From positions 39,060 through 103,059 of the IMG/VR virus record IMGVR_UViG_3300028888_000058: a stretch of 64,000 nucleotides of DNA. The stretch is one strand, 5' to 3'. The notes below the pieces were generated by a model, which was not told the origin of the DNA, made no database searches, and was given only the letters and a program-made list of their open reading frames with translations. A program made the translations under genes and the position numbers. Position 1 is the stretch's first letter; each line of letters begins with the position of its first letter. Of this stretch, positions 34,795 through 53,542 are shown one piece after another. The DNA is from a virus. Taxonomy: Duplodnaviria > Heunggongvirae > Uroviricota > Caudoviricetes.

Positions 34795-37170
34795 ATGCCT
34801 AATTATGAATCTAATGGTGTCTTATTTAAAAATGTTACCGCTGGTTTGAACACTGGTGGCCAAAAAATAAATAAAGCACCATATAAGTATGAAAATGGAA
34901 ATATCAAAAATCCCCAATTAATTATAAATGCAATTGATATTGATTGGAATAACGCTGAAGTTCCTGGATTGGATGATGACATTATTTCAACAGCAATGTT
35001 CTTAAGTACTATTGGTAATATTAATGAAACATCAAAACAATTAGTAAGAAAAACACAAGAATTAGAAACTGGTTTAAATAATTTATCGGATCATACAAGT
35101 GAAGTTGAAGAATCTTTAGGTACATTAGCAGAAAATGTTGATAATGCAGATCGTAGATTACAGCAATCAATTAATGAAAAAATATCAACAACAGAATTTA
35201 ATGAACGTGTTGAAGAAATTGTTAATCAAATAGGTCCTAAAGAGACTTATAAGCATATTATATTAACACAAGAAGAATATGAAGCATTAGAAGAATATGA
35301 AGAAGATGCTTTATATATGGTTATTGATGATGGAGTTCCAACACCACCGCCAACTCCTGTACCTACAGATCCATTTGAAGATATTAGTACAAACTTAAAT
35401 GTTTCTTATGTTGATGAAAATGGAGATATACAAGAAACTATATACACAACAGATGGTAAGATATCATTAGCGCCACAAAAGTCTTATACATTAGAAGGAA
35501 CATTAATTGGATCAATTGAAATTGACACATCATCATTATCTAAAGTTAATAATGATACTGAACTTATATTAAATAATGTACGTATATTATCAGATACAGA
35601 TAATGCAATTTTATATAAGATACCTGAAAATGCAAAAGCTCAGAAATCACTTAAGATAACATTATCACCTAATGTTGAAAACTATATATATTGCACATTA
35701 ACTGCAGAAAATACAGATGATCAACCTGGTGCAATATATTCAATGAATAATCTTAACATTCAAGGCGCAGGTTATTTATCAATTAAGACCAAATCAGGTC
35801 ATGGTATTCGTGCTGATGTTCTTAATTTAGGTGGTCCTCATATTTGGATCAATTCACCACATGATGGTATACATGGTAGAGATATACATATAATTGGCGG
35901 TGTATATAGCATGAATGGGTGTAATGATGCAATTGGTACTAGCAATTCTGGTAGAGTATTATTCTATGATGGCATATTATATACAAGTAATTTAAAACAA
36001 AATATTATAGATAGTAAAAACAAAGGATTATATTTCTCAGAAGATTTATTAACATCAGCACAATTACAAAGCTGTAATAATATGTATTTATTATCTGAAC
36101 AAAATTATAAATCAATATTTGGAAATATAACTGGATCTATTCAATTATTACCAGGTCAACCAGATTTTGATTATGATGAAAATACAACAGGAACTCCAAT
36201 AGAATTAGATGAAGCTACAGATACTTATATAATTTCTAATACTAAAGGAAATAAAGGAAAATATATTTTAGCAACAGGATATATTAATAAACCAATACAA
36301 TTTGATGGCTATGGTAATCAAAATGGAGATAATGTAACATTATATTTAAATAATGCATTTATAGATACATATAATAATCCAGATTTAAGTAATGGTGGTA
36401 ATGTACCATCTGTTTATTATTCTTCAGAAGGATCAAATATAAAAATAATGGCAGTTCAAGATTCTATAAATGTTATTAGAAATAATTATACATCTACAGG
36501 AATTGATGCCATTAATTTTGAAAGTGATTGTGTAAAATCTGAAAATAACTTAGAAATTGAACTTAAGAATAACTCATATTTGTATATATCATCGTTAAAA
36601 GCTGATGGATTAGATGGTGGTGAAACTAAAATTACTGATTCTAAAGGAAACATAATTATAACAAAATGTGGTCAACGTGGTATAAAAGGTAATGCAGTTG
36701 TTATTGGACCTGATGCAAATATATCATTAAAGAGCAATATTGAACAATATTACACAAAAGAATTTGTTGAAGAACATAATAGATTAAATCCAACAGATCA
36801 AATAAAATATACTACATTTGATGGTATATGTTATGTTAAGAATAATTGTAAAGTATTTATGCCAGAAATAGCAAATGGTTTATCTGATACTGATAAGAAA
36901 AATAGTGGTTTTGCTGATATATATGGAAGAAATGGTAAAGCTACAAGAGGTATTATTGGATTTACAACTTTAGAATTAGTTGGTGTATGTATAACTGGAT
37001 CAATGTGTTCTGTTTCTACAATTAATATGGGTAGTGCAAAAAGATTATATTATAATGAAATTATTAAATCAAATGATACTATTCAAAATCCTATTCCATT
37101 AACTGGTTCTCCAAGAATACTTAATGAAGTTGATCCAACAGATGAATCTAAAAATGTAGTTGATTTTTAA
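34795..37170 (+). CDS. Putative tail fibre or tailspike with a beta-helix (pectin-lyase-fold-like) region
   Basis: PTPPPTPVPTDP linker. Repetitive segments such as NLGGPHIWINSPHDGIHGRDIHIIGGVYSMNGCNDAIGTSNSG are typical of parallel beta-helix depolymerases. Confidence 0.4.
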   Translation: MPNYESNGVLFKNVTAGLNTGGQKINKAPYKYENGNIKNPQLIINAIDIDWNNAEVPGLDDDIISTAMFLSTIGNINETSKQLVRKTQELETGLNNLSDHTSEVEESLGTLAENVDNADRRLQQSINEKISTTEFNERVEEIVNQIGPKETYKHIILTQEEYEALEEYEEDALYMVIDDGVPTPPPTPVPTDPFEDISTNLNVSYVDENGDIQETIYTTDGKISLAPQKSYTLEGTLIGSIEIDTSSLSKVNNDTELILNNVRILSDTDNAILYKIPENAKAQKSLKITLSPNVENYIYCTLTAENTDDQPGAIYSMNNLNIQGAGYLSIKTKSGHGIRADVLNLGGPHIWINSPHDGIHGRDIHIIGGVYSMNGCNDAIGTSNSGRVLFYDGILYTSNLKQNIIDSKNKGLYFSEDLLTSAQLQSCNNMYLLSEQNYKSIFGNITGSIQLLPGQPDFDYDENTTGTPIELDEATDTYIISNTKGNKGKYILATGYINKPIQFDGYGNQNGDNVTLYLNNAFIDTYNNPDLSNGGNVPSVYYSSEGSNIKIMAVQDSINVIRNNYTSTGIDAINFESDCVKSENNLEIELKNNSYLYISSLKADGLDGGETKITDSKGNIIITKCGQRGIKGNAVVIGPDANISLKSNIEQYYTKEFVEEHNRLNPTDQIKYTTFDGICYVKNNCKVFMPEIANGLSDTDKKNSGFADIYGRNGKATRGIIGFTTLELVGVCITGSMCSVSTINMGSAKRLYYNEIIKSNDTIQNPIPLTGSPRILNEVDPTDESKNVVDF

Positions 37171-37173
37171 ACA

Positions 37174-37362: not shown

Positions 37363-37394
37363 AATATAAGAAATAAATTAAATAAATAAGATAT

Positions 37395-40300
37395 ATGGGT
37401 CTTTATACAGGAAGTTTAAATGAATTTATTGATTGGATATCTAATAGAGATATAATAACTAATAGAAAAACAATAGTTGACACAATTAGTGGTGGATCAA
37501 TTCGTGAATTATTACAGAGTCATTTACGTAAGCCATTTTATGTTCACGAAGATATTGATAATAATAGAAAACTATTGTTCTCAAGTGAAGAATCTAAGAT
37601 TAGATATTTTAAAGCAGTAGAAGAAGCGGGTGGTAATGAAAATGCCATAGCTCAAAAATATAAAGATTTAGTATTACTTGAATTTGATATCCCTGCACCT
37701 CATAAGATTATTTGTGTAGGGGAAAATGATGAAGTACTTAAAACAATGAATATTTTAAGTGGTAGTGCTCGTCAAATGATTAAGTTTAAAGTATATATTG
37801 ATGATAAAACTAGTGGACTTAACTCAAGTTATGAAGTTAAATTTAAACTTGTAGGACCTAATAATCAAGTTACATACGAAGATGTTCGTACTTATGATAG
37901 TACTAGTACAACAGACGTACAGTTATTTGACTGTTTTGATTATTTGCAAACAGGTTCAAATACATTAACATTATCTATAAGATTAACTGGTGATATATCT
38001 GCAGAAAAAATTAACCCACAAATTCCTATTAATATTATTAGTTATAATATATCAGCAGAATATGCTACATCTAATTGGTTTGATCCAATTTCTATTGGTT
38101 CTAACCTTCCTATTAATATGATAGTTAATAGAAGTATTTCAACTCCTGTTTCACAGACAATTTCATATTACATAGATGATTATTCTAATCCTAAAGGAAC
38201 AATAACAAAAAATATTGAAGGATTACGTGTTGCTACTTCATTAACAATTCCTAACGATATTATTAGAGAATGTGTTTGGCCACAATCTGGTACAGAAGAA
38301 AGTATGCATCCTAAGCATTATCTATTAATCAAAGGTAATATGTCAACAACAGATAATAGTATTAACTTTGATTCTAATTCATTACTTTATGAATTTATAA
38401 CTCAATCTGATGAACAAGAAGAATTAAATAACCACTTTATAATCATTAAACTATCTATACCTGCTGGTTCTTTACAGACATCAAATGGTATGGAAGGAAT
38501 TTATTTGACTGGTATTCAATATGAAGAGTTTATATTAGACTGGGCATATTTCACAAATGGTGGTACTGATGCATCTATTAGTGTTGAATGGGAGTTATGT
38601 CAATATGATACTGAAACTGGCGAAGTTATTGAAGATTCTAGAACATATTTGGCTACGTTATCAGGTATTAGAAACCAGGTTGCAGAGCCATTAAGATTTG
38701 TTCCAGATCAACCTTATCTAGAATCAGAAAACTGGCATTTGGTTGGTACTGTATTAAGTAATATTAAAGATTCTGAATCTGGAGAACCACGTAGATATAA
38801 AGCATTCGATAGACAAATTATTATTGAAAGATCATCATTTGAATTTGAATTTAATGAATGGGCTGGATATGTATTTAAATTAAATGCTTATGGCCGTACA
38901 AACAGTGAATCTGAAACATCAAGAACTAGATGGATGCCAACAGGTACAATATTGAATACTGCAAATATTCCACAAATGAATTTTTCTCCGTCAATTCCTT
39001 GGGATTCTGCAAATGGATGGTCAAATAATAGTTTGACATTCAATTCAGAAACATGTTTTGGAACAATTAACTTTAATGCATTTCCAAGTGGAAATCAATA
39101 TTTATTAAGTGAATATGGACGTACAATAGAAATTGACTTTATGTCAGGTTCAGTTAATAACGATGAAGATCCATTGATTATAATAGGTGCTAACGGAGAA
39201 ACAAGTAGAACTTATGAAGGGTCTACTCGTACAAATCCTGCGATATATATTTATCCTACAAAGGCGGTTATGTATTCAGGTGCAACTGAAGTCATTAAGA
39301 CAAACTATAAATCTAATGAACGTATTCAGTTAACATTCATATTTATGCCTAATACTGCCATTAAAGATGCTAAAAACGTTTATATTGTTAATAATGGTGT
39401 ACTTGAACGTGGTGCTAACTTAAGTGACCAAACAATAAGTAATGCAAATGGATGGATTAGAATTGGTGGAACAAACTCTCAAATATCTTTATATAATATA
39501 AGAGTTTGGTGGAGAAATATGCCAGTTTATGATGCATTTACAAACTTCTTATTTGATGCTCCTAATAAATCATCAATCATTATTAGAAACTCAATTACAA
39601 AAGGTTCTGGATCATCTGAAATTGATTATGATAGATGCGTATCAAAAATAGATACATTCTTAATATCAGGTAACATTAATAATATATTGACTCCTGGTGT
39701 TAATAAAGAAGATTCTGAAACTCCAGTTAACATTTTATATACAACGCCTTCAGATGGTCAGTATTTAGGATTCAATGCTACCGCAGTTAAAATGAGAAAA
39801 CATGGTCAGTCAACATTGAACTATCCTATTGCTTCATTTAAATTCTGGCTTAACAAATCAAAGGGTGAAAATAATCCACAAGTTGAATTTAAAGATGGTG
39901 TTAAAAACTTAAGGTTAGTTAAGAATAGATATCCTATTAACATAGGTTCAATTCCTTCTAATAAATATGTTTTACAAGCAAACTATGCTGACTCATCTGG
40001 TGTTCATAATGGAGGATTACTTAGATTAATTAATGAAACATGGTATAATGCCCCATTTAAGAAATCAAATGGTGTAATAGAATATAAATTAAGAACTTCT
40101 CCACAGTTATTTACATCTAACCAAACAGTTATTCATAATGATACACTATTAAATGAAGTTGGATCATCTGTATGGACTGATGGATATGGAAATACTGATG
40201 TAGAAATAAATGGAGTAAGCGCAAAAAATCATACATGGGGTGACTTACGTATAGCTGAAACTGGAAATGCACAACTAACAGCATTCCCATATAAGTTACG

Positions 40301-43300
40301 TAATGCTCCTGATTCACGTCCTGCTGTTGTATTCTATACTGATACATCTTCAGCAATACCTACTAAAAAGTTCTTAGGACAATTCGTATTAATGGATGAT
40401 AAGAAATCAGATCATATATTTGGCGAACGTTCTATTTATCTTTGGGGTGATGGTAATGATCCATTCTGTATGACAACAGAAGGTGCAGATACTCCAGTAA
40501 TTATAAATGGTAAGACTAAAAAAGGATATGACCAAGATGAATTCTGTGTTTGGGATAATAAACGTGTATTAAGAATTGAATGCGTACTTATTAACACTCC
40601 ATTAACATCATTCATGGATTTTAATGTACCTAATGACATTGTTATTGATAAAGACGGTAATACTGAAGATGATCAAACATTTACAAATGATCATGCCGCT
40701 TCAGATATTAAATATGAAACAGATCCTTCAACTGGAGAATTCATACTTGATGAAAATGGTAATAAGAAACCATTGAACTATTACTGGGAAGACTATTTTG
40801 AAATGATATTCCCTGATGAAGATGATATTTCTGAAGATGATGCTGCTGAGAATTTAAATAAATTTAGTGGTGTTCATAAGACTCCAGAACAAGCAGCAGA
40901 TCCAAATTATAAATGGCCAGAAGGAACATCTAAGTTCATTAAGAAAGCACAACCATGGATAGATTTCTTGAGATGGATCTGTTCAATAGGACAGCTTAAT
41001 AAAGATTCACAAGGAAACCCAATTATAAATGGCAATGTTTCTACAGCAGCATTAAATAAATTTAAATCTGAAGCACATGACCACTTAGATCTTTATAAGT
41101 TAGCTGCTTATTATATATTCTACATAAGATTTGGTCTTGTTGACTCTGTAGAACGTAATGCTCAATATAAAACATATGATGGATTACACTGGTTCTTAGA
41201 GCCATGGGATATGGATATCGCATTAGGTAATAAGAATACTGGTGGTCTTGCATTTGATCCTCCTATGGACCGTACAACAATGCTTGATGCTACATCACAG
41301 ACATATGCATATTCAGGAAGATCAAAAACTACTTCTAATGTTCTATGGGATTGCTTAGAAAAATGGGATTATTGGAGAGATGTAATTGTTCCTGAAACTG
41401 CACAAGCATTATATGAAGGTGGATTGACATACGATAAGATAACAGAAATGTTTGATAACAATTTTGCTAATAAATGGGCAGAATTAGTATATAATGAATC
41501 TGGTATGTATAAGTACGTAGAAAAAGCTCAGGATGCTACATGGCTTAACTGGTTACAAGGATCTCGTACTTCACACCGTCACTGGTGGATATCTACATCA
41601 ATGAACTATTATGATTCTAAATGGACTTGTGGACAGTTTAATTCATCAAGAATATATATGGCTGTTGATAAACCTCAAGGAACTGAAGCTATCATAACAG
41701 TTGTGCCTACATCTGAATCATATTTTAAATTGACACAGATGGATACTACATTAAATAGAGGATTATATAGAGCTACCAAATCTTCTCCTGCAAGATGGGA
41801 TGCTACAAACTGGTCATTCTCTACAAAAGACCCATCACACTTATTTGGTGCATTATTCATGGAGAAGATTGACTTGGATGTATTTGGACAAGGATTACAA
41901 GTATTATCATTCCAAAATGCAGTTGACCCAGTATTAGGAGCAACTATTAAAGAATTAAGTATAGGTAGTAGATTGCCTGAAGACTTAGAAAGTCCAAGTA
42001 GAACGCAATTCACTGGATGGATTCATAAGGTAGCTCCAAGTATAACAAACTCTTCATCTACAACTTCTGAAGATGATTCTGAAGGAGCACCAGATGCATT
42101 AGAAAACATTATAACATATAATATAACAGGACAACTTGGCCTTAAGGATGGTGATATAATAAAATCTAATAGAGCAAAACTAAAGAACATATATGCTATA
42201 GGTACTGGATTTACAACATTGACTTCTTCTGCATTAGGAAACGTATATGAAAACGTCCATTTGCCAGGAAGAACTTTAGAAAATACTGGATCTACTGTAA
42301 AAACAACACCTGGCGTTATTAGTATTAATGTTACTAATACATCATGGAAAAACATAACATTCTGGGAAACATCATATAACTCATCAGGTACTGAAAGAGT
42401 TCCTTATGAAATTAATGGGGAAGTACAGAGAGATGAGAATGGAGATATCATATATATAGAAAATCCTACTGTAGCTACATTTAAAAAGATGAATAGAATT
42501 CCTAAAGAATTTAAATCATTGACATTCAAAGGATCTACTGCTAATAATGTATGTACATTAGAATTTGTATTAGATTGGTTTAATTCTATTGAATATTATG
42601 TTAGTCAAGACAATCCTGAATTATCTGGAGATGCATTAGAACGTAAAGTACTTGAATATATTGGTAATAATTGCACCGCATCATTAGATAATATTAGATG
42701 GAACTATAATAAGTCATTTAATGATCCTGACTATAGACCAATAACATATAAAGATGTAGTAAGATTAGGATACCTAAACGGAATGCCTGATGAAAATGGA
42801 ATTGGCGTAAACTGGGGTACAAATTCATCATTAAAAGGATATGTTAAAATTGAAGGTGAGAATATGAAACCTGCGCAATTAACTGAATTATCTAACTTAT
42901 TTGGTGAAAATGTATTTACTTTAAGTAATATTAACTCTAACTTAGTTATTGACCAAGAAAGTAACTATGCTCAGATTTCAGTATCAGGAAACATACATAT
43001 AGAAACAGATACAACAACCGGTGAATCTATAATCGTTGCTAATGAAGGATCATTGATTAAATTTAAATGTACATCATTCTTACTTTCTTCTGAAAGTGTT
43101 GAAAATTATGTATGGACAATCAATGGAGCTGAAGGAAACACATTCGAAAATGCTCCTGATGGATTTACAAGAAATCTTATATTAGATCAAACAACAAAAC
43201 CTGAAAGATATACTATTACTATTACTGCAACAAAAATAGGTGATCAATCAATTAATTCATCAGTAATTGTATATATAGATCCTACAATAACTGCTCGTGA

Positions 43301-44501
43301 CTTTAAGTTTGAACCTGTAAACGGTCGTGATGTTAGACGATTCATATGTGACGAAGTAACTGCTCGTAATATGTTCGGAAATAATGCTATGGTAAATGGT
43401 CAGCTTAGAGACATATTCATCATTCCTAAAGGTGGAATGCAACAAGAATTTAAGTTAGATACTACTACAGAATTTGATGCTACAATACATAGTGTAAGTT
43501 TCAGAATTGGGGCAATCAATAACTCATTACCTATCAGAGAAACTGCATCAACAGGATGGACAGGAAATGAATTATCAGTTAATGATTCAACTGAATATTA
43601 TGTAACTACTAATGAAGTAGCAGATGGAGAATTAATTAAAGTATTGACAACAGCCGATAGTTATATCAATCGTACTAAGAAGGTAGTTAATGGCATATTG
43701 ACTGGTGTTCGTAATAGTATTAAGTTTAAGACATGTGATGACATAACATTATTCAATACCACTTGTGAAGATATGAAATACTTTACATTATATGGAAGTG
43801 TCAAATATAATTCTCCAAGTATCGGCACTCATACATATGCATGCAATATCATATTATATGATGATTCTAACTTCATATTGTCGCAAAGCTCTAAAGCATT
43901 CGCACCTATATTAAGAAAGCTTAAGGAATATAATACAGAATACTATAGTCCTATAACATCATTATATAAGTCAGACCTATCAGTATTAAACGGAACATTA
44001 GATTTTAAAGATGACCAAGGAAACACAATAGATATGGCAAATGATGCACAGTCATTTATCGCATCTGGTAAAAATGAAAGCATATTCAATTATATGCCTA
44101 ACATACAGATACTTGACTTTACAGGATTAACATATAACTTTGAAGATTTTGCTACACAAGGAAAACAATACTTTAATATGAAAAAGTTAAGATCATTAAA
44201 TAAACTGATATTAAAGGACTGTCCTGCAACAAGTATGGATCTACTTATTGAGAATAGCTCAACAATACAAGAATTAGACTTAAGTGGAAACTGTAATGCT
44301 GGTCTTATTTGTAAAAATAATCCTGCATTAACTACAATAAGTCTAGGTAAACCAAGTTTAATAAACATATCTGACTGTGCAAGTTTAACAAATAATGGTG
44401 TAACAATAACAGATAACTCATTGGTTAATAGTATTGATTTGAAATCAACATCTACAGACAGTTTGATAATGTTTAAGCTATTAAATAAATTCTTGGCATA
44501 A
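37395..44501 (+). CDS. Giant virion-associated protein (2368 aa); putative fibre or adhesin
   Basis: Uninterrupted 7.1-kb ORF next to the tail-fibre paralogs. No recognisable catalytic motif. Confidence 0.55.
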   Translation: MGLYTGSLNEFIDWISNRDIITNRKTIVDTISGGSIRELLQSHLRKPFYVHEDIDNNRKLLFSSEESKIRYFKAVEEAGGNENAIAQKYKDLVLLEFDIPAPHKIICVGENDEVLKTMNILSGSARQMIKFKVYIDDKTSGLNSSYEVKFKLVGPNNQVTYEDVRTYDSTSTTDVQLFDCFDYLQTGSNTLTLSIRLTGDISAEKINPQIPINIISYNISAEYATSNWFDPISIGSNLPINMIVNRSISTPVSQTISYYIDDYSNPKGTITKNIEGLRVATSLTIPNDIIRECVWPQSGTEESMHPKHYLLIKGNMSTTDNSINFDSNSLLYEFITQSDEQEELNNHFIIIKLSIPAGSLQTSNGMEGIYLTGIQYEEFILDWAYFTNGGTDASISVEWELCQYDTETGEVIEDSRTYLATLSGIRNQVAEPLRFVPDQPYLESENWHLVGTVLSNIKDSESGEPRRYKAFDRQIIIERSSFEFEFNEWAGYVFKLNAYGRTNSESETSRTRWMPTGTILNTANIPQMNFSPSIPWDSANGWSNNSLTFNSETCFGTINFNAFPSGNQYLLSEYGRTIEIDFMSGSVNNDEDPLIIIGANGETSRTYEGSTRTNPAIYIYPTKAVMYSGATEVIKTNYKSNERIQLTFIFMPNTAIKDAKNVYIVNNGVLERGANLSDQTISNANGWIRIGGTNSQISLYNIRVWWRNMPVYDAFTNFLFDAPNKSSIIIRNSITKGSGSSEIDYDRCVSKIDTFLISGNINNILTPGVNKEDSETPVNILYTTPSDGQYLGFNATAVKMRKHGQSTLNYPIASFKFWLNKSKGENNPQVEFKDGVKNLRLVKNRYPINIGSIPSNKYVLQANYADSSGVHNGGLLRLINETWYNAPFKKSNGVIEYKLRTSPQLFTSNQTVIHNDTLLNEVGSSVWTDGYGNTDVEINGVSAKNHTWGDLRIAETGNAQLTAFPYKLRNAPDSRPAVVFYTDTSSAIPTKKFLGQFVLMDDKKSDHIFGERSIYLWGDGNDPFCMTTEGADTPVIINGKTKKGYDQDEFCVWDNKRVLRIECVLINTPLTSFMDFNVPNDIVIDKDGNTEDDQTFTNDHAASDIKYETDPSTGEFILDENGNKKPLNYYWEDYFEMIFPDEDDISEDDAAENLNKFSGVHKTPEQAADPNYKWPEGTSKFIKKAQPWIDFLRWICSIGQLNKDSQGNPIINGNVSTAALNKFKSEAHDHLDLYKLAAYYIFYIRFGLVDSVERNAQYKTYDGLHWFLEPWDMDIALGNKNTGGLAFDPPMDRTTMLDATSQTYAYSGRSKTTSNVLWDCLEKWDYWRDVIVPETAQALYEGGLTYDKITEMFDNNFANKWAELVYNESGMYKYVEKAQDATWLNWLQGSRTSHRHWWISTSMNYYDSKWTCGQFNSSRIYMAVDKPQGTEAIITVVPTSESYFKLTQMDTTLNRGLYRATKSSPARWDATNWSFSTKDPSHLFGALFMEKIDLDVFGQGLQVLSFQNAVDPVLGATIKELSIGSRLPEDLESPSRTQFTGWIHKVAPSITNSSSTTSEDDSEGAPDALENIITYNITGQLGLKDGDIIKSNRAKLKNIYAIGTGFTTLTSSALGNVYENVHLPGRTLENTGSTVKTTPGVISINVTNTSWKNITFWETSYNSSGTERVPYEINGEVQRDENGDIIYIENPTVATFKKMNRIPKEFKSLTFKGSTANNVCTLEFVLDWFNSIEYYVSQDNPELSGDALERKVLEYIGNNCTASLDNIRWNYNKSFNDPDYRPITYKDVVRLGYLNGMPDENGIGVNWGTNSSLKGYVKIEGENMKPAQLTELSNLFGENVFTLSNINSNLVIDQESNYAQISVSGNIHIETDTTTGESIIVANEGSLIKFKCTSFLLSSESVENYVWTINGAEGNTFENAPDGFTRNLILDQTTKPERYTITITATKIGDQSINSSVIVYIDPTITARDFKFEPVNGRDVRRFICDEVTARNMFGNNAMVNGQLRDIFIIPKGGMQQEFKLDTTTEFDATIHSVSFRIGAINNSLPIRETASTGWTGNELSVNDSTEYYVTTNEVADGELIKVLTTADSYINRTKKVVNGILTGVRNSIKFKTCDDITLFNTTCEDMKYFTLYGSVKYNSPSIGTHTYACNIILYDDSNFILSQSSKAFAPILRKLKEYNTEYYSPITSLYKSDLSVLNGTLDFKDDQGNTIDMANDAQSFIASGKNESIFNYMPNIQILDFTGLTYNFEDFATQGKQYFNMKKLRSLNKLILKDCPATSMDLLIENSSTIQELDLSGNCNAGLICKNNPALTTISLGKPSLINISDCASLTNNGVTITDNSLVNSIDLKSTSTDSLIMFKLLNKFLA

Positions 44502-44505
44502 TATA

Positions 44506-46659
44506 ATGGGAAAACATATTAAATTAACTCAAACAGTTGGGCAGGAAAATAACGTACCTGCTCAACTTATAACAAAACTATATACATTATATAGTAATCA
44601 ATTAAAAGGATTGGATTCATGGGACTGTAATGAAGACTCTATACAAGGAACATTTAAGACAGGATATACATATGATAAATATGTAGAAGCATTACATTCA
44701 TTCTTCAATAATCTTAATATTATATCTGAAGGATATTATGTATATTTTGAAGATCCTGTTGTAGAATCAATAATATTAAACCAATTAGTTAATGTAATAT
44801 ATCCAGAAAAACATTATGAAGGAGTTATTACAGGTTTAGAAGTAAATAATTCAGGTAATTCTGATTATTATGGATTTAGACGAATATTTAAAGGCAATAA
44901 TGAAATACAAACATTTGATGAGCTATCAAAACTAACAAATGTGAAAGCATTAGCAACAAGTGAATTTGCTAGTTCACAATCATTAACAAGCATAGATTTA
45001 ACAAATATTGAAACATTTGGAATTAATGCATTTGCATATTGTTCTAATTTAGAATTCTTTAATGGACAGAATTCAGAAAAAGGATCTTTACGTTTGCCTA
45101 ACCTTAAATCAAACGGTTTCTCTGGAGGAATCTTTCAATGGGAAAAGACAAATAATGTATGGAGAGGTCCTAAAGTAAAAAAGATATATGACTTAGGAAA
45201 CTGTACAGTCATACAAGATAGAATATTTTTACACTGTATTTCACTTGAATATATTGAAGACGGCATATTAGAACAAATTACACGTATTGGACATTATTCA
45301 TTTCAATACTGTGAAAACTTGATAATAAATGACTTAAAATTGCCTAATATAACAACTATAGGAAATGAAGCATTTCGCAATACACAAATAAAGAAAATAT
45401 CTGAATTGGGAAACTGTACGATATGTGAATACACATTTGAATACTGTGATAAATTAACATCAATATCTCCAGAAGCATTAGAAAATATAACAAAAATATA
45501 TAAAGGGGCATTTGCATATTGTACAAATTTGGTAATAGATGACTTAAGTCTACCACAATTAACAGAAATTAGTGAAGATGCATTTAGAGGATGTAAAATA
45601 AAAACAGTATCGAACTTAGGTAATGTAACAACAGTAACTGGATTTACAAATTGCACAACACTAACATCAGTATCAATTCCATTAAGTGCAAATAAATTAG
45701 GTCAAAGTGCGTTTATGGGATGTGTCAATCTAACAGGTGTCAATGATATCATAAATAGAATAACATATTTTGATACTGATTGTATGACAGGTATATTAAC
45801 ATTACCATCAATTATATACATAAAAGCTAATGTTTGTAGTTATAGACCATTTAAAGATTCAAATGTTAGATCAATGTATCTTCCTAACATAACACATACA
45901 AACAGTATTAGTGGATATGATACTCCAGGTGTTGGTAGATTAAATAGAACAGTAATGTGTGGATCAACAATGGATATCTATTATCTAAAAAATATTCGTA
46001 AAATAAATGGATGGCTATTTGGTGGTAAGTCATACGCCGACATATATGCAACGGAATGGGATGGAACCTTATATTATAATACAAACTATGAAGGTCTAGG
46101 AAGACGTAGAGAAAACAATAATTGGGTACAGGAATATAAAGGCGCGGTACCATTTGGAGAACGTGGGCAACGTATCGACAAGTGGGCAGCTAATGTACTT
46201 TGGGCAAATATAAAATATTTGGTCATAAATAATACAACACCACCAGAATATTGGCAATCAACATATCAATATGGAGGCAGTATATTTAGTAGTATATCAT
46301 TATATATGAAAGCTGAGAGCGGATCTAATGAAACTTTCCATTATTTGGTTGTACCTAGATCTGCAATTAATACATATTTAAACTGGGATGCAATCAATCC
46401 TGATTTAAGTTCACCAAATTTAGACAGTGAGTATAGACAAAAATTTACTGATATTACCAAGTTTACAAATGATGCTACTGAAAATAGAATAATAGCTTTA
46501 GAAAGCATGGGGCATTTTGCAACAAAAGCAGAATATGATGCTGCTCCAGATATGCCAGATGGAGTACATAGTAAAAATGAATATCTAATAGAAGAATACA
46601 TGGGATTATTACCAGGAGAGTCAATTAACTGGGATTCAACTCCAACTTGGGGAGTATAA
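44506..46659 (+). CDS. BspA-type leucine-rich-repeat protein, paralog 1; putative receptor-binding protein
   Basis: Shares an approximately 100-aa N-terminal domain with the next two genes. Repeats of the form AFxxCxNL...LPNIT. C-terminus IEEYMGLLPGESINWDSTPTWGV. Confidence 0.55.
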   Translation: MGKHIKLTQTVGQENNVPAQLITKLYTLYSNQLKGLDSWDCNEDSIQGTFKTGYTYDKYVEALHSFFNNLNIISEGYYVYFEDPVVESIILNQLVNVIYPEKHYEGVITGLEVNNSGNSDYYGFRRIFKGNNEIQTFDELSKLTNVKALATSEFASSQSLTSIDLTNIETFGINAFAYCSNLEFFNGQNSEKGSLRLPNLKSNGFSGGIFQWEKTNNVWRGPKVKKIYDLGNCTVIQDRIFLHCISLEYIEDGILEQITRIGHYSFQYCENLIINDLKLPNITTIGNEAFRNTQIKKISELGNCTICEYTFEYCDKLTSISPEALENITKIYKGAFAYCTNLVIDDLSLPQLTEISEDAFRGCKIKTVSNLGNVTTVTGFTNCTTLTSVSIPLSANKLGQSAFMGCVNLTGVNDIINRITYFDTDCMTGILTLPSIIYIKANVCSYRPFKDSNVRSMYLPNITHTNSISGYDTPGVGRLNRTVMCGSTMDIYYLKNIRKINGWLFGGKSYADIYATEWDGTLYYNTNYEGLGRRRENNNWVQEYKGAVPFGERGQRIDKWAANVLWANIKYLVINNTTPPEYWQSTYQYGGSIFSSISLYMKAESGSNETFHYLVVPRSAINTYLNWDAINPDLSSPNLDSEYRQKFTDITKFTNDATENRIIALESMGHFATKAEYDAAPDMPDGVHSKNEYLIEEYMGLLPGESINWDSTPTWGV

Positions 46660-46687
46660 TATAATAAAATTATAAAGTAAATAACGA

Positions 46688-48487
46688 ATGTCTAAAAAAC
46701 ATATTAAAGTTAATCAAATAAATGTTCAAGAAACTAATGTTCCTTCTGAATTAATTACCAAACTTTATAGATTAATTAAAAGTACTGAAGCTGGAAACGA
46801 AGTATGGGATGCTATGGATGAAGGCAAAATAGATACGGCATTAGTAGGATCATTTAAAACAAAAGGATATACATATGAAGAATATGTAGATAAAATAAAT
46901 CAATATTTTGATGGTACTTTAACTATAGAAGCTGAAGGATATTATATTTTATTTCAAGATGATTTTGTTTTAAATACTTTATTAGACAAAGGATTCGGTG
47001 ATGGTACAGGTATATCTACAGATGTAGCTAGAAATATTATGTTTAATCCATGGGATATGTTTAAATCAACTGAAATAGAATATTTTAATGAATTTAAATA
47101 TTTTTCTGATTTAAATAGTAGAAATACACAATCTAATAATCCTGGTAATAATAGAAGTTTTTGTTTTAGAGATTCAAATTTAAAATCAATAGACTTAAGT
47201 AATTTAACAGCTCCAGTACCTTATAATGCATTTAAAGGTTGTACATCATTAACTTCAATAGGTAGTTTATCAAAATGCAGTTATATTGGAGAATCTGCAT
47301 TTTCTGGTTGTACTTCATTAACTTCAATAGATTTATCAAATATTACATGTTTATATAAAGACTCTTTAAGACAAACAGGATTAGTTCTAACAAATGAAGA
47401 TTTACAAAATATATCTACATTTATTGGAAATCGTGATTCAGGCGTTTTTGGCGCGGGTAATTATGTAACATTATTAGACATTGAACTATTAGATTTACCA
47501 AATTGTACATATGTAGCAGATACTACTTTTACTAAACAAACAAATATAAAATATGTTAATTTAGAAAATTTAAACACACTATGTGGAAATAAAACATTTT
47601 ATGGATGTACACAATTAATTACAGCAAAATTAATTGGAACATTTATTGAAATAGATGGTGATTTTTCATATAATGGTAATGGTATGTTTGAAAGTTGCGT
47701 TAATTTAAGAGAAGTAGAATTACCAGTAAATTTATCAAATTTATCATATCATATATTTTATAATTGTACAAATTTAACTACAGTTAATTTTAGTGATTTT
47801 CAAGAAAATCTTACTATAATTGATGGAAATGCTTTTTATAAAACTAATTTTACACATAAAGTATTTTATTTACCACGTTGTATAAAATTTGGTGGTGTAT
47901 ATAATCATGGAAGAGGATCTAATTATGATGGATCTACTGCTCCATTTATAGGTATGATAGGTAATTATAGTTTTTATTTACCAAAAATTACTGAAATTCA
48001 TGATTCATATGCATCTAATAATTCAAGAGGAAATAGAGTATCATATTTTGGTGAAAGGATATATATGCCATATATAACATTATTTTCAAATAATGTTCAT
48101 AATCAACATCATGACCATTCAACTATTAAAACATTATATTTTAAAAAATTAAATAAAGTACAGGCTAGTACATTTGCAGGATTTACTGTAGATATACTTA
48201 TATTTAATAATGCAACACCTCCTCAACTTGAAATAATGAGTGATTGGGTAGATACTGGAGATGGTGATAATGGAATATGCTTATTTAATGAAGATATGTT
48301 TAGAACTACTATCATTAATGATGGTATTTATGTACCAGATTCTGCAGTAGAAACATATAAAGCTACTTCATATTTCTCAAGTGTTATAGATAAAATTAAA
48401 CCTTTAAGTATATGTCCACGAATTACTATTGAACAAGGCATGGGTGGTATGGCTGGACTAATAGAAGAATATATGAATGAAAAATAA
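46688..48487 (+). CDS. BspA-type LRR protein, paralog 2
   Basis: Conserved N-terminal domain NVPSELITKLY...GYTYEEYV...AEGYYILF. LRR-type repeats. Confidence 0.55.
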   Translation: MSKKHIKVNQINVQETNVPSELITKLYRLIKSTEAGNEVWDAMDEGKIDTALVGSFKTKGYTYEEYVDKINQYFDGTLTIEAEGYYILFQDDFVLNTLLDKGFGDGTGISTDVARNIMFNPWDMFKSTEIEYFNEFKYFSDLNSRNTQSNNPGNNRSFCFRDSNLKSIDLSNLTAPVPYNAFKGCTSLTSIGSLSKCSYIGESAFSGCTSLTSIDLSNITCLYKDSLRQTGLVLTNEDLQNISTFIGNRDSGVFGAGNYVTLLDIELLDLPNCTYVADTTFTKQTNIKYVNLENLNTLCGNKTFYGCTQLITAKLIGTFIEIDGDFSYNGNGMFESCVNLREVELPVNLSNLSYHIFYNCTNLTTVNFSDFQENLTIIDGNAFYKTNFTHKVFYLPRCIKFGGVYNHGRGSNYDGSTAPFIGMIGNYSFYLPKITEIHDSYASNNSRGNRVSYFGERIYMPYITLFSNNVHNQHHDHSTIKTLYFKKLNKVQASTFAGFTVDILIFNNATPPQLEIMSDWVDTGDGDNGICLFNEDMFRTTIINDGIYVPDSAVETYKATSYFSSVIDKIKPLSICPRITIEQGMGGMAGLIEEYMNEK

Positions 48488-48525
48488 ACATAAAACTAAA
48501 AAATAAAATTAAATAATATTTAATA

Positions 48526-48595
48526 GAAGAATATATGGGATTAGGTCCAAATGAAACAATTAACTGGGATTCAACTCCAACATGGTCAATATAAA
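48526..48595 (+). pseudogene. Orphan remnant of the paralog-1 C-terminus (IEEYMGLGPNETINWDSTPTWSI, then stop)
   Basis: About 85% nucleotide identity to 46590-46659. Confidence 0.5.
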
Positions 48596-48611
48596 TATAT
48601 GAACATATAAT

Positions 48612-49655
48612 ATGTCAACTTTACATATAAACGTAAATCAACAAGAAAGTATAATTGAATATAATGTTCCACCTTCATTGATAAACAAGTTATATAAATT
48701 AGTTAACAGGGAAAATAATGGTGAAACAATATTTGATAATAATACTAATATAATTGGAACAATCAATACTGAATATACTTATGAAGAATATATAAATATT
48801 ATCAAAAACAGATTCAACCAGTTACATATAAATGCAGATGGATATTATATATTATTTGAAGATGAAAATTCTAAACAAATATTATTTAATGCAATTAATT
48901 GGACTGAAGAAGGAATTACTGCAGAACAAGCAGCTAATATTAATTTAATTGCATCAAATACAAAAATTAGTGGAACTTCAATAATATATTTTAATGAATT
49001 TAAATATTTTACAAGTAATAGTGGTCTTACTGATTTATTTAAAAATTGCACATCATTAAAAGAAGTAACTATGCCACCAATTGTTGCATCTTGGGCTAGA
49101 GGATATTATGATCATAGCCCATTTTATAACTGCTCATCATTAACAAAAGTTAATTGGAATAATTGTACAATAACTGGAGGAGATAAATATAGAAAATATT
49201 TTGGATTATATAATAAATGCTCATCAATAAAATGGTATGATGGAATATTGCCTCCAGGATGTGATGAAATTAGTGAACACATGTTTAATAATAGTGGTGT
49301 TGAAAAAATAATAGCTCCAGAAGGTATTACATGTATGGGTGCTATTGTTGGTGCGACAAAATGTGTATATATTGAATTACCTACAACAGTTACAGAAATA
49401 GATGCACAACATTGGGGACGAAATATGAATGAAAGATCTGGTGGTACTGGACAAATAGTTTTGGCATGTAAAGCTATAACTCCGCCAACATTATTAAGGA
49501 CTGATGGATTTCATGATGCTGATACTACAATATATGTACCAGATGAATTAATATCCGAATATCAAACTGCTTGGAGTAACTTTCCTAGACTTTCTGGAAT
49601 ATATGGATTATCAGAATTACCACAAACATATAAAGATATGGGTACAATTAAATAA
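48612..49655 (+). CDS. BspA-type LRR protein, paralog 3 (shorter)
   Basis: Conserved N-terminal domain NVPPSLINKLY...EYTYEEYI...ADGYYILFED. Confidence 0.5.
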   Translation: MSTLHINVNQQESIIEYNVPPSLINKLYKLVNRENNGETIFDNNTNIIGTINTEYTYEEYINIIKNRFNQLHINADGYYILFEDENSKQILFNAINWTEEGITAEQAANINLIASNTKISGTSIIYFNEFKYFTSNSGLTDLFKNCTSLKEVTMPPIVASWARGYYDHSPFYNCSSLTKVNWNNCTITGGDKYRKYFGLYNKCSSIKWYDGILPPGCDEISEHMFNNSGVEKIIAPEGITCMGAIVGATKCVYIELPTTVTEIDAQHWGRNMNERSGGTGQIVLACKAITPPTLLRTDGFHDADTTIYVPDELISEYQTAWSNFPRLSGIYGLSELPQTYKDMGTIK

Positions 49656-49667
49656 AAGAATATATGT

Positions 49668-49706
49668 AAAAGGAATTATGAAAGTAATTCCTTTTTATTT
49701 TGATCT
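49668..49706 (+). terminator. Rho-independent terminator
   Basis: aaaggaatta-tgaaag-taattccttt followed by ttattttg. Confidence 0.5.
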
Positions 49707-49820
49707 TAAAAAATATTTATTTTTATTAAAATATGTATTTTTTAATATTAATTTAAAAAAAAGTATATTATTTTTAATTGTATTTGAAATATTATAACAA
49801 AAATATTGTAAACCAATAAT

Positions 49821-51548
49821 ATGACAGATAAACGTTGCTTGATTTATGAGACTCTTGGTAAAGTTTCAGATCTTGAAATCGTTGAAAGTAAAGGTAGCAA
49901 CGGTATGCGTCTTCATGGTGTATTTGGTGTTTGTGGTATAAAGAATCAAAATAATCGTGTTTATGATAAAGAAAATTATAAGCAGATGGTTGAGTCTTTA
50001 CAAAAAGTTATCAAAGAATCAGGTTGTCCTGGTGAATTGGAACACCCAAACTCAATGAATATTAATTTACAAAATGTATCTCACAAGATTGAATCTATTC
50101 AAATGAATGAAGATGGAACCATCACTGGTGATATCTTGCTTTTGAATACTCCAAGTGGAAAAATTGCTCAAGCAATTGTAGAAGGCGGTCTTCCATTGTA
50201 TATATCTTCAAGAGGTGCAGGTACTATCACTAATGAAGGTCGTGTAACGTTATCTACTATTAAGACTTACGATTTGGTCGGTACTCCAGGTTTTAGTCAA
50301 GCCAAACTTACTCTTAAAGAGAATCAAAAACTTGAATGTCTTAATGAAGGTTTAGAAGAAGGTAACAATGAAACTTGGGTAATCGTTGAAGGTTCTGATG
50401 ATCTTTTATCTGATGATGATGATAAGGATAAAGATAAAGAACCTAAAGAAGAACCTAAGGAAGATGATAAACCAAAGGATAAACCTAAGGAAGATGACAA
50501 GGATAAAGATGACTCTAAAGATAAGGATAATGATAAAGAAGATAACAAAAATAATGGCAATGATAATACCGATATGGAAAAACTTAGAGAAGCTGTTGAA
50601 GAGCTTGCTAAAAAAGTAGAATCTCTCCAAGCTGAATTGCATGTTGCAAAAGAAAGTTTAGAAGAGACTAGAGAATCAGTTAAGCCAGTTAATTACGAAG
50701 CTATTGAACAATGGGTAAAGGAAGAATTTGCTCCAGAATTCAAGCAAGAAGTATCTAATGAAATTAACGAAGATATTGATGAAAAGATTGATACTAAAGT
50801 TAATGAATCAATGGAAACTATTGCTACAGGCGTAGAAAATTGGATTAATGAAGAATATAATCCTGAAGTTCAAAAGTGGGTTAATGAAGAATTCGCTCCA
50901 ATGGTACAACAATGGATAGTTGAAGAATTTGCTCCAGAAGTTCAGAACTGGGTAGTTGAAGAATTTGCTCCAGAAGTTCAGAACTGGGTAGTTGAAGAAT
51001 TCTCACCTGAAGTACAAAATTGGATCGTAGAGGAATTCTCACCTGAAATTCAAGGATGGATTACTGAAGAATTTGCTCCAGTAGTAGAAGGATGGATTAC
51101 TGAAGAATTTGCTCCTGAACAATCACAAACTATTGAAAATAAAGTAAATGAGAATGTTTCTGCATTTATGGAATCTCAAAAGGCTGGTCGTTTAGAAGAA
51201 ATTGATAGTTTACTTGAATCAATTGCAAATGACGATAATGCATCAGTTAACAAAATTGTTGAAGAAGAAGGAAAGAACAATAAATATAAAGGAGTTTATG
51301 TTGTAGAAAACATGCCTGCTGAATATCGTCCTTCTTGGGAACTTCTTACAGAAGCTCGTCAACAAGAAATTATTAGAAGTTCTCGTATGTATGACTTCAT
51401 GAAGGAAGGTCAAATTGAGAAGTTCTGGGCTAACGTTGATTTCAATCAACAAAATCCTGTTTATGTAAATGAAGCTAAGGAAAATCCTATGGAAGCTTAT
51501 CAGAATTCAATTGTTGCAAAGATGAAAGCTCTTCGTAGAAATTGCTAA
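49821..51548 (+). CDS. Prohead protease (T4 gp21-like) fused to an acidic, repeat-containing scaffold-like domain
   Basis: PGELEHP matches gp21 GELNHP (catalytic His). YISSRGAGT matches gp21 GVSSRGLGS (catalytic Ser). DLVGTPGFS. C-terminal half contains a K/D/E low-complexity region and 9 tandem 12-aa repeats. Confidence 0.65.
   Translation: MTDKRCLIYETLGKVSDLEIVESKGSNGMRLHGVFGVCGIKNQNNRVYDKENYKQMVESLQKVIKESGCPGELEHPNSMNINLQNVSHKIESIQMNEDGTITGDILLLNTPSGKIAQAIVEGGLPLYISSRGAGTITNEGRVTLSTIKTYDLVGTPGFSQAKLTLKENQKLECLNEGLEEGNNETWVIVEGSDDLLSDDDDKDKDKEPKEEPKEDDKPKDKPKEDDKDKDDSKDKDNDKEDNKNNGNDNTDMEKLREAVEELAKKVESLQAELHVAKESLEETRESVKPVNYEAIEQWVKEEFAPEFKQEVSNEINEDIDEKIDTKVNESMETIATGVENWINEEYNPEVQKWVNEEFAPMVQQWIVEEFAPEVQNWVVEEFAPEVQNWVVEEFSPEVQNWIVEEFSPEIQGWITEEFAPVVEGWITEEFAPEQSQTIENKVNENVSAFMESQKAGRLEEIDSLLESIANDDNASVNKIVEEEGKNNKYKGVYVVENMPAEYRPSWELLTEARQQEIIRSSRMYDFMKEGQIEKFWANVDFNQQNPVYVNEAKENPMEAYQNSIVAKMKALRRNC
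50700..51135 (+). repeat. Nine tandem 36-bp (12-aa) coding repeats (xEEFAPEVQNWV) inside the scaffold domain
   Basis: Read directly from the translation. Confidence 0.6.
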
Positions 51549-51665
51549 ATTTAATAACTAATAAGGAAATTGCATATATTTTCTATTAGGAAAGAAAATA
51601 TTTATTTTTATATAAAATTAATTTATCTCAAAAGAGAATAACAAATAAATTTCAACTTAAATAAT

Positions 51666-53450
51666 ATGTTTAATGAACAAAATGGTGTACAGACATGGGA
51701 GAAGATGTTGAAAGAAAACTTCAATGTTACAGACCAGGAAAAACTTAACTGGGTGTCTCAGTACGCAGCTATTCATGAAATTCACGAATCTCAACTTGGA
51801 ATTAATGGTGGTCAAGTAGTTACTAACGCTACAACTTATCCAGGTGTTGGTCCTATCTATACTACTCCAATGAACACTACAGGTATGGGTAATATTGCTG
51901 CTCCAAGTCAATTAGATCCAATGAGCACAGCTCCATATAACCAAGCTAATCCAACAGGTTCATTCTGGGGTCAAACTCCAGGTTCAGGTGATATTCCTGT
52001 ATCAACATTACCAATGGCTCTTAACGTTGCATTGTTAACTATTGGTCTTGAATTAGTTCCAGTTATCCCTGCTAAGGGTCCTTGGGCTATGTTAACTTAC
52101 ATGGACTTCCCATATGCTGGTGGTAAGTTAGGTCGTGTAAACGAAACTTCATTCGATGGTAAGGGTGATCTTAATGAAAACAAACCAATCTATGTTAAGA
52201 TCAAGGGTCTTACACTTGCTCAGATCCAAACAATCCGTCAAGGTATGGAAGCTGCAACTCCAACAGTTAAAGCTGATGATACTGTAACTGTAGGTGGATT
52301 TGAAGGTAAGTTCATTTCATTAGGTCGTATGGATGCTTGCCCACTTGTAAAAGTTGTTAAGTGTTCAGATGCTAATCACTCAATCCGTGAAGAATTCGAC
52401 GCTGCTACTTCTGTAGTAATCGGTAGTGTTACTATCACTCTTACTGCTGCTAATGCTTCTACAGGTGTTCCTGCTCAAAAGGTTGAAGCTGACTTCGTAC
52501 AGACTTCTGTTGATTTAGTAGATGGTTTCGCAAACTTCTTCGATGGTTCTAAGAATTCAATGACACGTGCTCAGAATGAAACTGGTACAGGTAATGTAAT
52601 CGGTCTTCGTTTATTCAGCAAGTGGATCCAAATGGGTGCTTATGAAGTAACTGGTACTGTTACTCGTCAACAGTTACAAGATCTTCCATTATATGGCGTA
52701 GATGCTGTAGGTAAAGTTATGGAAGCTCTTCAAAACGAAATCACTCAACATATCAACCAACGTATCCTTGAAAGAGTATTCGCACTTGGTGTTACTAATG
52801 CTGCTCAACAAAAGGCTCGTCAGGGTGTTGATTTGAACTTGTGGATGGGTAAGACTGGTTCTACAATTTCTATGGCTCAAGCTTATGCTGGTGTACCTCA
52901 CTTCACAGATATCTACGGATATGATCACAAACCAACTTGGACAGGTATTAAGAACTCAGAAGTTAATACTTCTGCTGAAAATCTTTCTACACGTCAACGT
53001 CGTATCATGAGCCGTATCTTAGCTGCTGCTAACTTAATCCAATTGGTAGGTCGTCGTGGCCGTCCAACATGGATCGTTACTAACGGTAAGATTGCTTCTG
53101 CATTACAAGATGTATCTGGTTACGTTGTAGCTCCATTCTTGAACACAATGTCTCAAGCTAATACTCAGAACTTATACCACGCAGGTACTGTTGCTGGTCT
53201 CCAAGTTTATGTAGATCCTTACATGGATTGGAATGATACTCGTATCTGTATCGGTCGTAAGGGTACTGGTAACGAACCTGGTGTAATCTTTATGCCTTAT
53301 ATTCTTGCAGATACTATTAGTATTACTGCTGAAGGAACTATGGCTCCTAAGATGTTGGTTAACAGCCGTTATGCAATCGCTGAAGCTGGCTTCTTCCCAG
53401 AACTCGCATATTTCACAATGGTTGTTGATTCAGAGTTCGATATCATCTAA
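51666..53450 (+). CDS. Major capsid protein (T4 gp23-like)
   Basis: C-terminal VYVDPYMDWNDTRICIGRKGTGNEPGVIFMPYILA parallels gp23 VYIDQYAKQDYFTVGYKGPNEMDAGIYYAPYVAL. N-terminal IHEIHE|SQLGINGG resembles the gp23 propeptide junction LTE|AEIGG. GC-richer codons. Confidence 0.7.
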   Translation: MFNEQNGVQTWEKMLKENFNVTDQEKLNWVSQYAAIHEIHESQLGINGGQVVTNATTYPGVGPIYTTPMNTTGMGNIAAPSQLDPMSTAPYNQANPTGSFWGQTPGSGDIPVSTLPMALNVALLTIGLELVPVIPAKGPWAMLTYMDFPYAGGKLGRVNETSFDGKGDLNENKPIYVKIKGLTLAQIQTIRQGMEAATPTVKADDTVTVGGFEGKFISLGRMDACPLVKVVKCSDANHSIREEFDAATSVVIGSVTITLTAANASTGVPAQKVEADFVQTSVDLVDGFANFFDGSKNSMTRAQNETGTGNVIGLRLFSKWIQMGAYEVTGTVTRQQLQDLPLYGVDAVGKVMEALQNEITQHINQRILERVFALGVTNAAQQKARQGVDLNLWMGKTGSTISMAQAYAGVPHFTDIYGYDHKPTWTGIKNSEVNTSAENLSTRQRRIMSRILAAANLIQLVGRRGRPTWIVTNGKIASALQDVSGYVVAPFLNTMSQANTQNLYHAGTVAGLQVYVDPYMDWNDTRICIGRKGTGNEPGVIFMPYILADTISITAEGTMAPKMLVNSRYAIAEAGFFPELAYFTMVVDSEFDII

Positions 53451-53483
53451 AATATATACGAGCAATAACTCGCCTCTATATAT

Positions 53484-53542
53484 TAAATCGATACTTGTGA
53501 AAGTATCAAGGGTAACCTTAGAGGTTACCCTTTTTTATTTTG
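53484..53542 (+). terminator. Rho-independent terminator (two hairpins plus T-run)
   Basis: gatacttgtgaaagtatc and agggtaaccttagaggttaccct followed by tttttattttg. Confidence 0.55.

Follow-up and report, generated by a model that had tools for sequence, protein, structure and literature searches.

Three tandem LRR genes behind a giant gene

The 64,000-nucleotide (nt) stretch of DNA analyzed here, from a large tailed phage of gut or rumen (positions 39,060 to 103,059 of the IMG/VR record IMGVR_UViG_3300028888_000058; hereafter the window) carries a tandem array of three genes for BspA-type leucine-rich repeat (LRR) proteins, directly behind a gene for a giant CotH-like protein. We describe the architecture of these paralogs, the exchange of their parts among related phages, their pairing with the giant gene, and the role in adhesion that they may have. 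The three LRR open reading frames (ORFs) had been picked out by a first-pass annotation made from the letters of the window, and they are present exactly at the coordinates that it gave. The main genes are as follows.

37395..44501, + strand: giant protein, 2368 amino acids (aa), with a CotH-like core at aa ~1221-1371 and an LRR-like C-terminus; directly 5' of the LRR genes
44506..46659, + strand: paralog 1 (p1), 717 aa, with an N-terminal domain (N-domain) at aa 1-~92 (44506-44781), BspA-type LRR and a C-terminal region
46688..48487, + strand: paralog 2 (p2), 599 aa, with the N-domain at aa 1-~99, LRR and a C-terminus ending in GLIEEYMNEK and the stop codon
48612..49655, + strand: paralog 3 (p3), 347 aa, with the N-domain at aa 1-~93

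All three paralogs exceed the gathering score of the Pfam family LRR_5 (PF13306, BspA-type; 27.7 bits), with 140.3, 82.5 and 44.5 bits for p1, p2 and p3, respectively, and all three match the PDB entries 4gt6, 4fs7 and 6mlx by sequence. The number of repeats differs among them, as the first-pass annotation had supposed, with 4, 2 and 2 LRR_5-matched stretches and 7, 7 and 3 F/Y..C..L motifs. Outside the N-domain, the proteins are 23–36% identical and align only in part (BLASTP). AlphaFold2 models show a compact alpha/beta N-domain followed by an LRR solenoid and a strand-helix cap; the full-length p2 monomer reached a pLDDT (predicted local distance difference test score) of 84 and a pTM (predicted template modeling score) of 0.84, and the N-domain alone a pLDDT of 86. 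The C-terminal region of p1 ends in LIEEYM and an 18-aa tail, GLLPGESINWDSTPTWGV.

The Pfam scan of p1–p3 returned LRR families only and no other surface-protein domain. The first 40 residues of each protein have a Kyte-Doolittle maximum of about 0.3 (15-aa window) with no hydrophobic stretch, and no signal-peptide-like segment is apparent in any of them, as judged by hydropathy. The paralogs thus share LRR_5 scores above threshold and sequence matches with the BspA-family surface proteins of Bacteroidota and spirochaetes (4gt6, 4fs7, 4fdw and TpLRR, 6mlx), but they are phage-encoded, lack a signal peptide or hydrophobic N-terminus, and have an N-domain and a LIEEYM C-terminal motif of their own.

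An undescribed N-domain family

The N-domain of about 90 aa is common to p1, p2 and p3, with 30 invariant columns in the alignment. Pairwise BLASTP gave 42–43% identity and 58–73 bits (E 6e-18 to 1e-23), compared with at most 18.5 bits in 100 shuffles per pair, and SEG marked no low complexity in p1 or p2. These comparisons bear out the shared domain reported by the first-pass annotation and show that the similarity is not one of low-complexity composition, the weakness to which that claim had been thought open. When 1.84 billion cluster representatives were searched exhaustively with the N-domain profile in HMMER, 308 proteins were recovered at E<=1e-3 and 37 at E<=1e-10. Among the 308 representatives, the match lies almost always at residues ~1-95 of proteins of 280–860 aa. 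In the LRR genes scanned with the hidden Markov model (HMM), the N-domain occurs once per gene. LRR_5 was found in 89 of 97 sampled family members, and a LIEEYM-like end in 29 of the 122 long ones; p1-type orthologs carry an additional conserved tail (...NWD.TPTW..).

No relative of known function was recovered for the N-domain. A Pfam scan at E<=1 and a profile search of the PDB returned scattered noise, a structure search of BFVD returned family members only, and the PHROG matches of the family comprise two families of unknown function and no others. A tblastn search of 50,697 phage records with the p1 N-domain and an IMG/VR scan with the N-domain gave no match, and a word-indexed profile search of a 5.8-billion-protein set recovered a single fragment. 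Our literature search on phage or crAss-like BspA/LRR proteins yielded no relevant paper. The N-domain defines an undescribed phage protein family. One BFVD entry, A0A8S5LDI4_2 (Siphoviridae sp. ctCCX1), has an N-domain-like fold in the second piece of a far longer LRR protein (E 5.8e-4); a fused giant and LRR gene, or read-through in the annotation, could account for it.

Paralog 2 as a repeat-bracketed indel

A 96-nt direct repeat with 78% identity and a long, near-identical core brackets p2.

46580..46675, + strand: left copy, formed by the 3' end of p1 and the start of the intergenic spacer (repeat families D1 and D6)
48515..48610, + strand: right copy, the "orphan"

The orphan contains a 26-codon coding-like remnant, YLIEEYMGLGPNETINWDSTPTWSI and its stop codon, at 48517-48595, with an in-frame TAA ahead of it. 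In a related locus, L023, a p1-type gene (P0048) has a genuine 3' end to which the orphan is 89% identical (E 3e-25). In the related genome L007, the tail of the first LRR gene (g1), the spacer and the N-domain of the second (g2) are orthologous to the window's orphan, spacer and p3 N-domain, with 89.5% identity. We scored the L007 junction at informative sites, i.e., the positions where the window's two repeat copies differ. It matched the p1 copy at 33 of 36 such sites up to 46620 and the orphan copy from 48556 on. The junction of the p2-less L007 genome is precisely the chimera that recombination between the repeat copies would leave, and p2 with its flanks (46621-48555, 1935 nt) is therefore an indel, either an insertion or a deletion, that the two repeat copies bracket and that L007-type genomes lack. 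The first-pass annotation had described a leftover copy of the p1 C-terminus at 48526-48595. The copy is real and is a remnant, but it extends over 48517-48595, and it is more than a leftover, because the L007 junction identifies it as the right-hand member of the repeat around p2. Similar debris occurs in the related locus L015, where two consecutive 3' remnants (3924-4162) lie upstream of a p3-type gene: a p1-type tail, NEYLIEEYMDLTTPIQWDEIPSWSE and stop, followed by what is left of a p2-type gene, its final ~52 codons (56 aa in the ORF call). These remnants keep the p1-p2-p3 gene order of the window.

A functional orphan would be a different matter. A bypass like that of T4 gene 60, starting from the LIEEYM codons of p2, would give p2 the NWDSTPTW tail; otherwise, the remnant could be read as a 19-aa micro-ORF. 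Its reading frame is intact with a stop at the homologous position, and an 18-nt direct repeat, TAATAGAAGAATATATG, with copies 62 nt apart (family D18), offers matching take-off and landing codons (ATG at 48473-48475 and 48535-48537). However, the putative take-off codon is not directly adjoined by a stop, which follows only three codons later, and the gap folds no better than its shuffles (z -0.23). The p2-type remnant of L015 and many family members end naturally at LIEEYM and a stop, L015 has two similar remnants in a different order, and the recombination-scar model predicts the L007 junction exactly. We consider a functional orphan highly improbable, and translational bypass was rejected as unsupported, given a gap without structure beyond that of shuffles and the lack of a stop directly after take-off.

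Turnover of cassettes and exchange of LRR bodies

The number of LRR genes that follow the giant gene varies from one to at least four across related phages. One gene is present in L017 (456 aa) and in L023/L024 (p1-type, 734 aa), and two in L007-L011 (717 aa and 439 aa, then the protease gene), where P0002 is the p1 ortholog. L014 and L022 have at least two each, with a p1-type and a p2-type gene adjacent in L022; the window has three and one remnant, and L015 at least four and two 3' remnants.

The bodies of the genes are exchanged as well. Homology between the window and L007 stops at 48862, just past the GYYILFED residues, and resumes at 49647, and the p3 body (48863-49646) is replaced relative to L007 g2 (P0003). 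The right-hand breakpoint of this body swap is marked by a remnant at the end of p3.

49649..49669, + strand: degenerate, out-of-frame copy of LIEEYM and its stop (TAAATAAAAGAATATATGTAA), overlapping the p3 stop codon (alignment to the end of L007 g2; repeat family D9)

Discordant identities confirm the shuffling. Compared with P0003, p3 is 86% identical in the N-domain and 29% in the body, and compared with P0007, it is 46% identical in the N-domain and 68.5% in the body. Two metagenome contigs from different samples (L001 and L003) end exactly after residue 92 of a p1-type N-domain. In L002, a TAG and a frame change occur at the N-domain end (1309-1320), where 94 nt of window sequence are replaced by 11 nt. 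These breaks fit population heterogeneity at the N-domain boundary, and they could also reflect a pseudogene or an assembly artefact. The comparison across related phages proposed by the first-pass annotation therefore upholds its view of diversification by domain shuffling, as gain, loss and recombination are all seen, with breakpoints at the N-domain end and at LIEEYM.

Nucleotide identity to L007-L011 is 89–92% over the block of the 791-aa beta-helix protein, giant and p1 (35250-46782), whereas identity to L007/L008 over the protease, capsid and sheath genes (49647-55836) is only 75–77%, suggesting that the former block moves laterally as a module. When the window is compared with L007, the ratio of nonsynonymous to synonymous substitution rates (dN/dS) is 0.71 in the LRR part of p1, 0.31 in its C-terminal region and 0.24 in its N-domain; the giant has a ratio of 0.12. 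These values come from one genome pair and are indicative only, to the effect that the LRR part evolves faster at the protein level than the N-domain or the giant.

The 64-kb window contains no inverted repeat pair of at least 45 nt, and all cassettes lie on one strand, although an invertase was not searched for. Likewise, no repeat pair resembling the template and variable repeats of a diversity-generating retroelement (DGR) was found in the window, although a reverse transcriptase was not searched for. Apart from the 96-nt cassette repeat and the starts of paralogous genes, the window has no long non-tandem repeats. An invertible switch or shufflon was rejected for lack of inverted repeats, and a DGR model for the LRR cassettes for lack of a template/variable-type repeat pair. 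Cassette exchange therefore appears to be ordinary homologous recombination between genomes at conserved coding joints and not a programmed switch. The invertible fiber cassettes of Mu (Gin/S-U) and P1 (Cin) and the gp37/gp38 mosaicism of T-even phages likewise place alternative distal modules on a constant part by recombination at conserved joints. The window differs from the invertible cassettes in that it lacks inverted repeats and its exchange is, as far as visible, evolutionary.

Pairing of the giant gene with LRR genes

The giant protein scored 25.3 bits against Pfam CotH (PF08757; gathering score 23.8) when scanned in 500-aa pieces; the match was not seen in a whole-protein scan at E<=0.01. 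In all seven related loci with identifiable upstream sequence (L004, i.e., cr272_1, L007, L013, L014, L017, L018 and L020), the gene immediately 5' of the first LRR gene encodes a homologue of the giant. The two genes overlap by 4 nt at one extreme and lie 21 nt apart at the other, and the window is arranged likewise. The order recurs in L023, with its upstream gene recognized only by eye from C-terminal residues.

The pair extends to classified crAss-like phages. In cr272_1, gp54 (2178 aa) is 34% identical to the window giant over its full length, and its gene is followed, overlapping by 4 nt, by that of gp53, a 521-aa N-domain-LRR protein that ends in IIKEYM and a stop and can be aligned with p2 from end to end (E 1.5e-32). 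When IMG/VR was scanned with the giant C-terminus, only cr272_1 and cr273_1 matched. The gp54-gp53 genes of these phages (Suoliviridae, Buhlduvirus), annotated as hypothetical, form an orthologous module. It differs from that of the window in having a single LRR gene and in-frame TAG codons in both genes, 4 and 3 in the giant and LRR genes of cr272_1 (NC_055903.1, 1465-9563). The window also encodes a tail sheath, whereas Crassvirales are podovirus-like. Four of the seven loci are TAG-recoded, one of which is a classified crAss-like phage. In L013, L018 and L020, the giant and LRR homologues contain in-frame TAG, or the standard code fails to give the database protein, implying TAG reassignment. 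The giant and LRR genes of the window read through in the standard code.

The giant-LRR block is co-oriented and tightly spaced, and it lies directly 5' of the genes for a prohead protease, a Gp23-type capsid protein and a 1018-aa tail sheath.

34795..37170, + strand: 791-aa protein with a Cthe_2159 carbohydrate-binding domain (Pfam PF14262, E 2.5e-19)
49668..49699, + strand: terminator-like hairpin with a 12-bp stem followed by TTTTTATTTT, closing the giant-LRR block before the protease gene
49821-51548: prohead protease
51666-53450: Gp23-type major capsid protein

Both neighbors that the first-pass annotation had placed beside the LRR genes, the 2368-aa ORF and the beta-helix protein, are there, the latter as the Cthe_2159 protein, whose gene also stands upstream of the giant gene in L007, L012 and L017. 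The capsid protein is 31–37% identical to its counterparts in Lak megaphages, Sphingomonas phage PAU, Tenacibaculum jumbo phages and a 462-kb uncultured phage, and several jumbo relatives have the block in the same position near the protease, capsid and sheath genes. Megablast against the 50,697 phage records returned no near-identical record for the locus, whereas the exact sequence is present on a metagenome contig of 142 kb in ENA. The hairpin 3' of p3 folds at -11.4 kcal/mol (z -4.26), a stability reached by 0 of 200 shuffles, and a comparable hairpin is visible by eye in the alignment 3' of L007 g2; the giant and LRR genes therefore look like a single transcription unit. A sigma-70 promoter and terminator scan was uninformative in the AT-rich window DNA (GC ~23–37%).

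A putative set of exchangeable adhesion subunits

The reading that we favor, with a rough probability of 0.55, is that the LRR proteins are exchangeable ligand-binding adhesion subunits, docked through the N-domain on a virion-associated giant, in an array remodeled at two joints. The variable BspA-type LRR body would supply binding specificity toward a host or a substrate. The conserved N-domain would dock the LRR proteins onto a giant CotH-like protein of the virion, most simply the one encoded immediately upstream. Each family member is completed by a short conserved C-terminal cap that often ends in LIEEYM. Homologous recombination would use the N-domain end (…GYYILFED) as one joint and the LIEEYM and tail codons at the 3' end as the other. 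Exchange at both would insert, delete or replace whole bodies or genes.

The step from these genes to virion-borne receptor-binding proteins draws on context and analogy only, and the virion location of the LRR proteins, their docking on the giant, their receptor or adhesin function and the "anchor" role of the N-domain are putative in that sense. The strongest analogy is the homology of the giant to a putative tail-fiber protein of Hankyphage (Bacteroides phage p00). The CotH-like core of the giant is homologous to the 2245-aa ORF of that phage, with 26% identity (E 4e-20). The Hankyphage ORF lies just after a minor tail protein and has a DGR variable repeat at its C-terminus (PMC6199706), and a later study treats this DGR-target ORF as a tail fiber (PMC12135933). 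The two phages share a homologous CotH-like core in a giant protein. In Hankyphage, the diversified part is the distal binding end of that protein, through DGR mutagenesis of a C-type lectin; here, variation comes from separate LRR gene cassettes. Mass spectrometry of Hankyphage particles assigned a large "minor tail protein" to the >250 kDa fraction, but its accession could not be matched to the DGR-target ORF, and we did not use it as evidence.

Several points weigh against the adhesion-subunit reading. The Hankyphage homology is limited to the CotH-like core of the giant and is absent from the LRR proteins. Virion membership of any family member is a prediction from gene context. No cultured phage with the family occurs in the searched collection, where two metagenomic records, cr272_1 and cr273_1, and a single fragment are the only carriers. 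Classical fibers and spikes are trimeric, whereas an LRR solenoid is usually a monomer. Rapid turnover and raised dN/dS, the latter from the single genome pair noted above, are also compatible with counter-defense or host-takeover genes.

The last point leads to a non-virion alternative, which we consider unlikely. The LRR proteins would act inside the cell by binding host proteins in counter-defense or takeover, with an N-domain that is regulatory or that assembles with the kinase-fold giant as an enzyme or ejected effector. As scaffolds, LRRs serve protein binding in general. Counter-defense loci, too, typically show mosaicism, high dN/dS and a variable copy number, and p1–p3 lack the signal peptide or hydrophobic segment discussed above. 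The CotH fold, matched in the giant by Pfam, is an atypical kinase fold, and the virion location of the LRR proteins is itself putative. Against it, the block is fixed within the late structural region of several jumbo relatives, and in cr272_1 only a few genes separate the module from the endolysin, terminase and portal genes downstream. Moreover, the closest characterized relative of the giant is a DGR-diversified protein treated as a tail fiber, and Pfam describes PF13306 as BspA-type LRR. Characterized BspA-type LRR proteins are known as extracellular adhesins.

A place on the virion would also suit adhesins that recognize not the host cell but environmental substrates such as mucus, plant fiber and the surfaces of eukaryotes or of other bacteria. 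Like T4 Hoc in the "adherence to mucus" model, they would enrich the phage in places that its hosts inhabit. In oral and gut Bacteroidota, proteins with BspA-type LRRs attach to host matrix and bring about co-aggregation. The neighboring 791-aa protein has a carbohydrate-binding domain, and mucus adherence was proposed for the related giant by the Hankyphage authors (PMC6199706). None of these features discriminates environmental adhesion from receptor binding, and the high turnover seen among close relatives suits a host-range arms race no less well. We regard an environmental role in place of receptor binding as distinctly unlikely.

The adhesion-subunit reading can be extended to a broader idea, tentative and with the odds against it, in which the giant and its N-domain LRR proteins would form a portable adhesion organelle that passes between unrelated virion types, those of crAss-like phages and of jumbo myophages of the Lak/PAU kind. 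As its plug, the N-domain would dock monomeric LRR "heads" onto the giant scaffold, and Hankyphage would vary the same ancestral scaffold by DGR where these phages vary it by gene cassettes swapped at the two coding joints.

Other repeats in the window

Additional repeats occur away from the LRR array. Six tandem 36-nt (12-aa) repeats resembling EEFAPEVQNWVV lie at 50832-51119, within the 575-aa prohead protease/scaffold-like ORF, and this region aligns with the L007 homologue in several registers. The ORF at 24336-24947 (203 aa) holds five tandem repeats of 72–81 nt at 24474-24899, and three 39-nt tandem repeats (87% identical) at 28072-28203 are apparently intergenic, between the ORFs at 27716-28081 and 28616-29053. 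Several ORF starts share a similar 5' end, ATGAAATC(A/T)(A/T)TTAA..., read by eye as MK(S/T)(I/F)K... (2650-2700, 4455-4501, 16979-17029, 18367-18413, 22806-22852, 23426-23476, 26429-26490 and 27143-27189), suggesting a dispersed paralogous small-gene family or a common start/leader signal. A 48-nt repeat (92% identical; 18304-18351 and 19042-19089) follows two adjacent 219-aa ORFs (17507-18166 and 18374-19033) and, with a GC-rich palindrome seen by eye (GCGCATTAAAAGCGT-like), may be a shared terminator.

Relation to known systems and implications

The principle of an anchor with a swappable distal domain is already well known for tailspikes and fibers. A conserved N-terminal anchor with an exchangeable distal domain occurs in the tailspikes of the P22, SP6 and K1-5 type, in TSP1-4 of CBA120, and in the branched depolymerase sets of Klebsiella phages. 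With such systems of multiple receptor-binding proteins, the window shares tandem paralogs, a short conserved N-terminal module, diverged distal parts, breakpoints at the module boundary and varying copy number. It differs in having a BspA-type LRR solenoid instead of a trimeric beta-helix or fiber as the distal part, an N-domain unrelated to any solved anchor domain, and a presumed giant CotH-like partner. The place of the window proteins in the virion is, moreover, putative. In the literature and libraries searched, the N-domain family, the BspA-type LRR solenoid as the variable part, the obligatory pairing of a giant CotH-like protein with LRR genes, and the occurrence of this pair in both crAss-like and jumbo phages appear to be undescribed.

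Whatever function the proteins prove to have, the locus is a clean natural case of a cassette indel formed by direct-repeat recombination. Host recognition is largely unknown in the abundant uncultured phages of gut and rumen, such as crAss-like and Lak-like phages. If the LRR proteins are binding subunits, the N-domain HMM, which has already recovered 308 sequence clusters, would be a simple metagenomic marker for host-range determinants, and the mapped joints would show where specificity is naturally swapped, which would be useful for engineering. A portable adhesion organelle, if real, would give tailed phages a receptor-binding architecture that is so far undescribed. A shared giant scaffold would make cassette shuffling and DGR mutagenesis alternative routes to one end, and the occurrence of the module in both crAss-like and jumbo phages would suggest that host-range modules cross between very different virion types.

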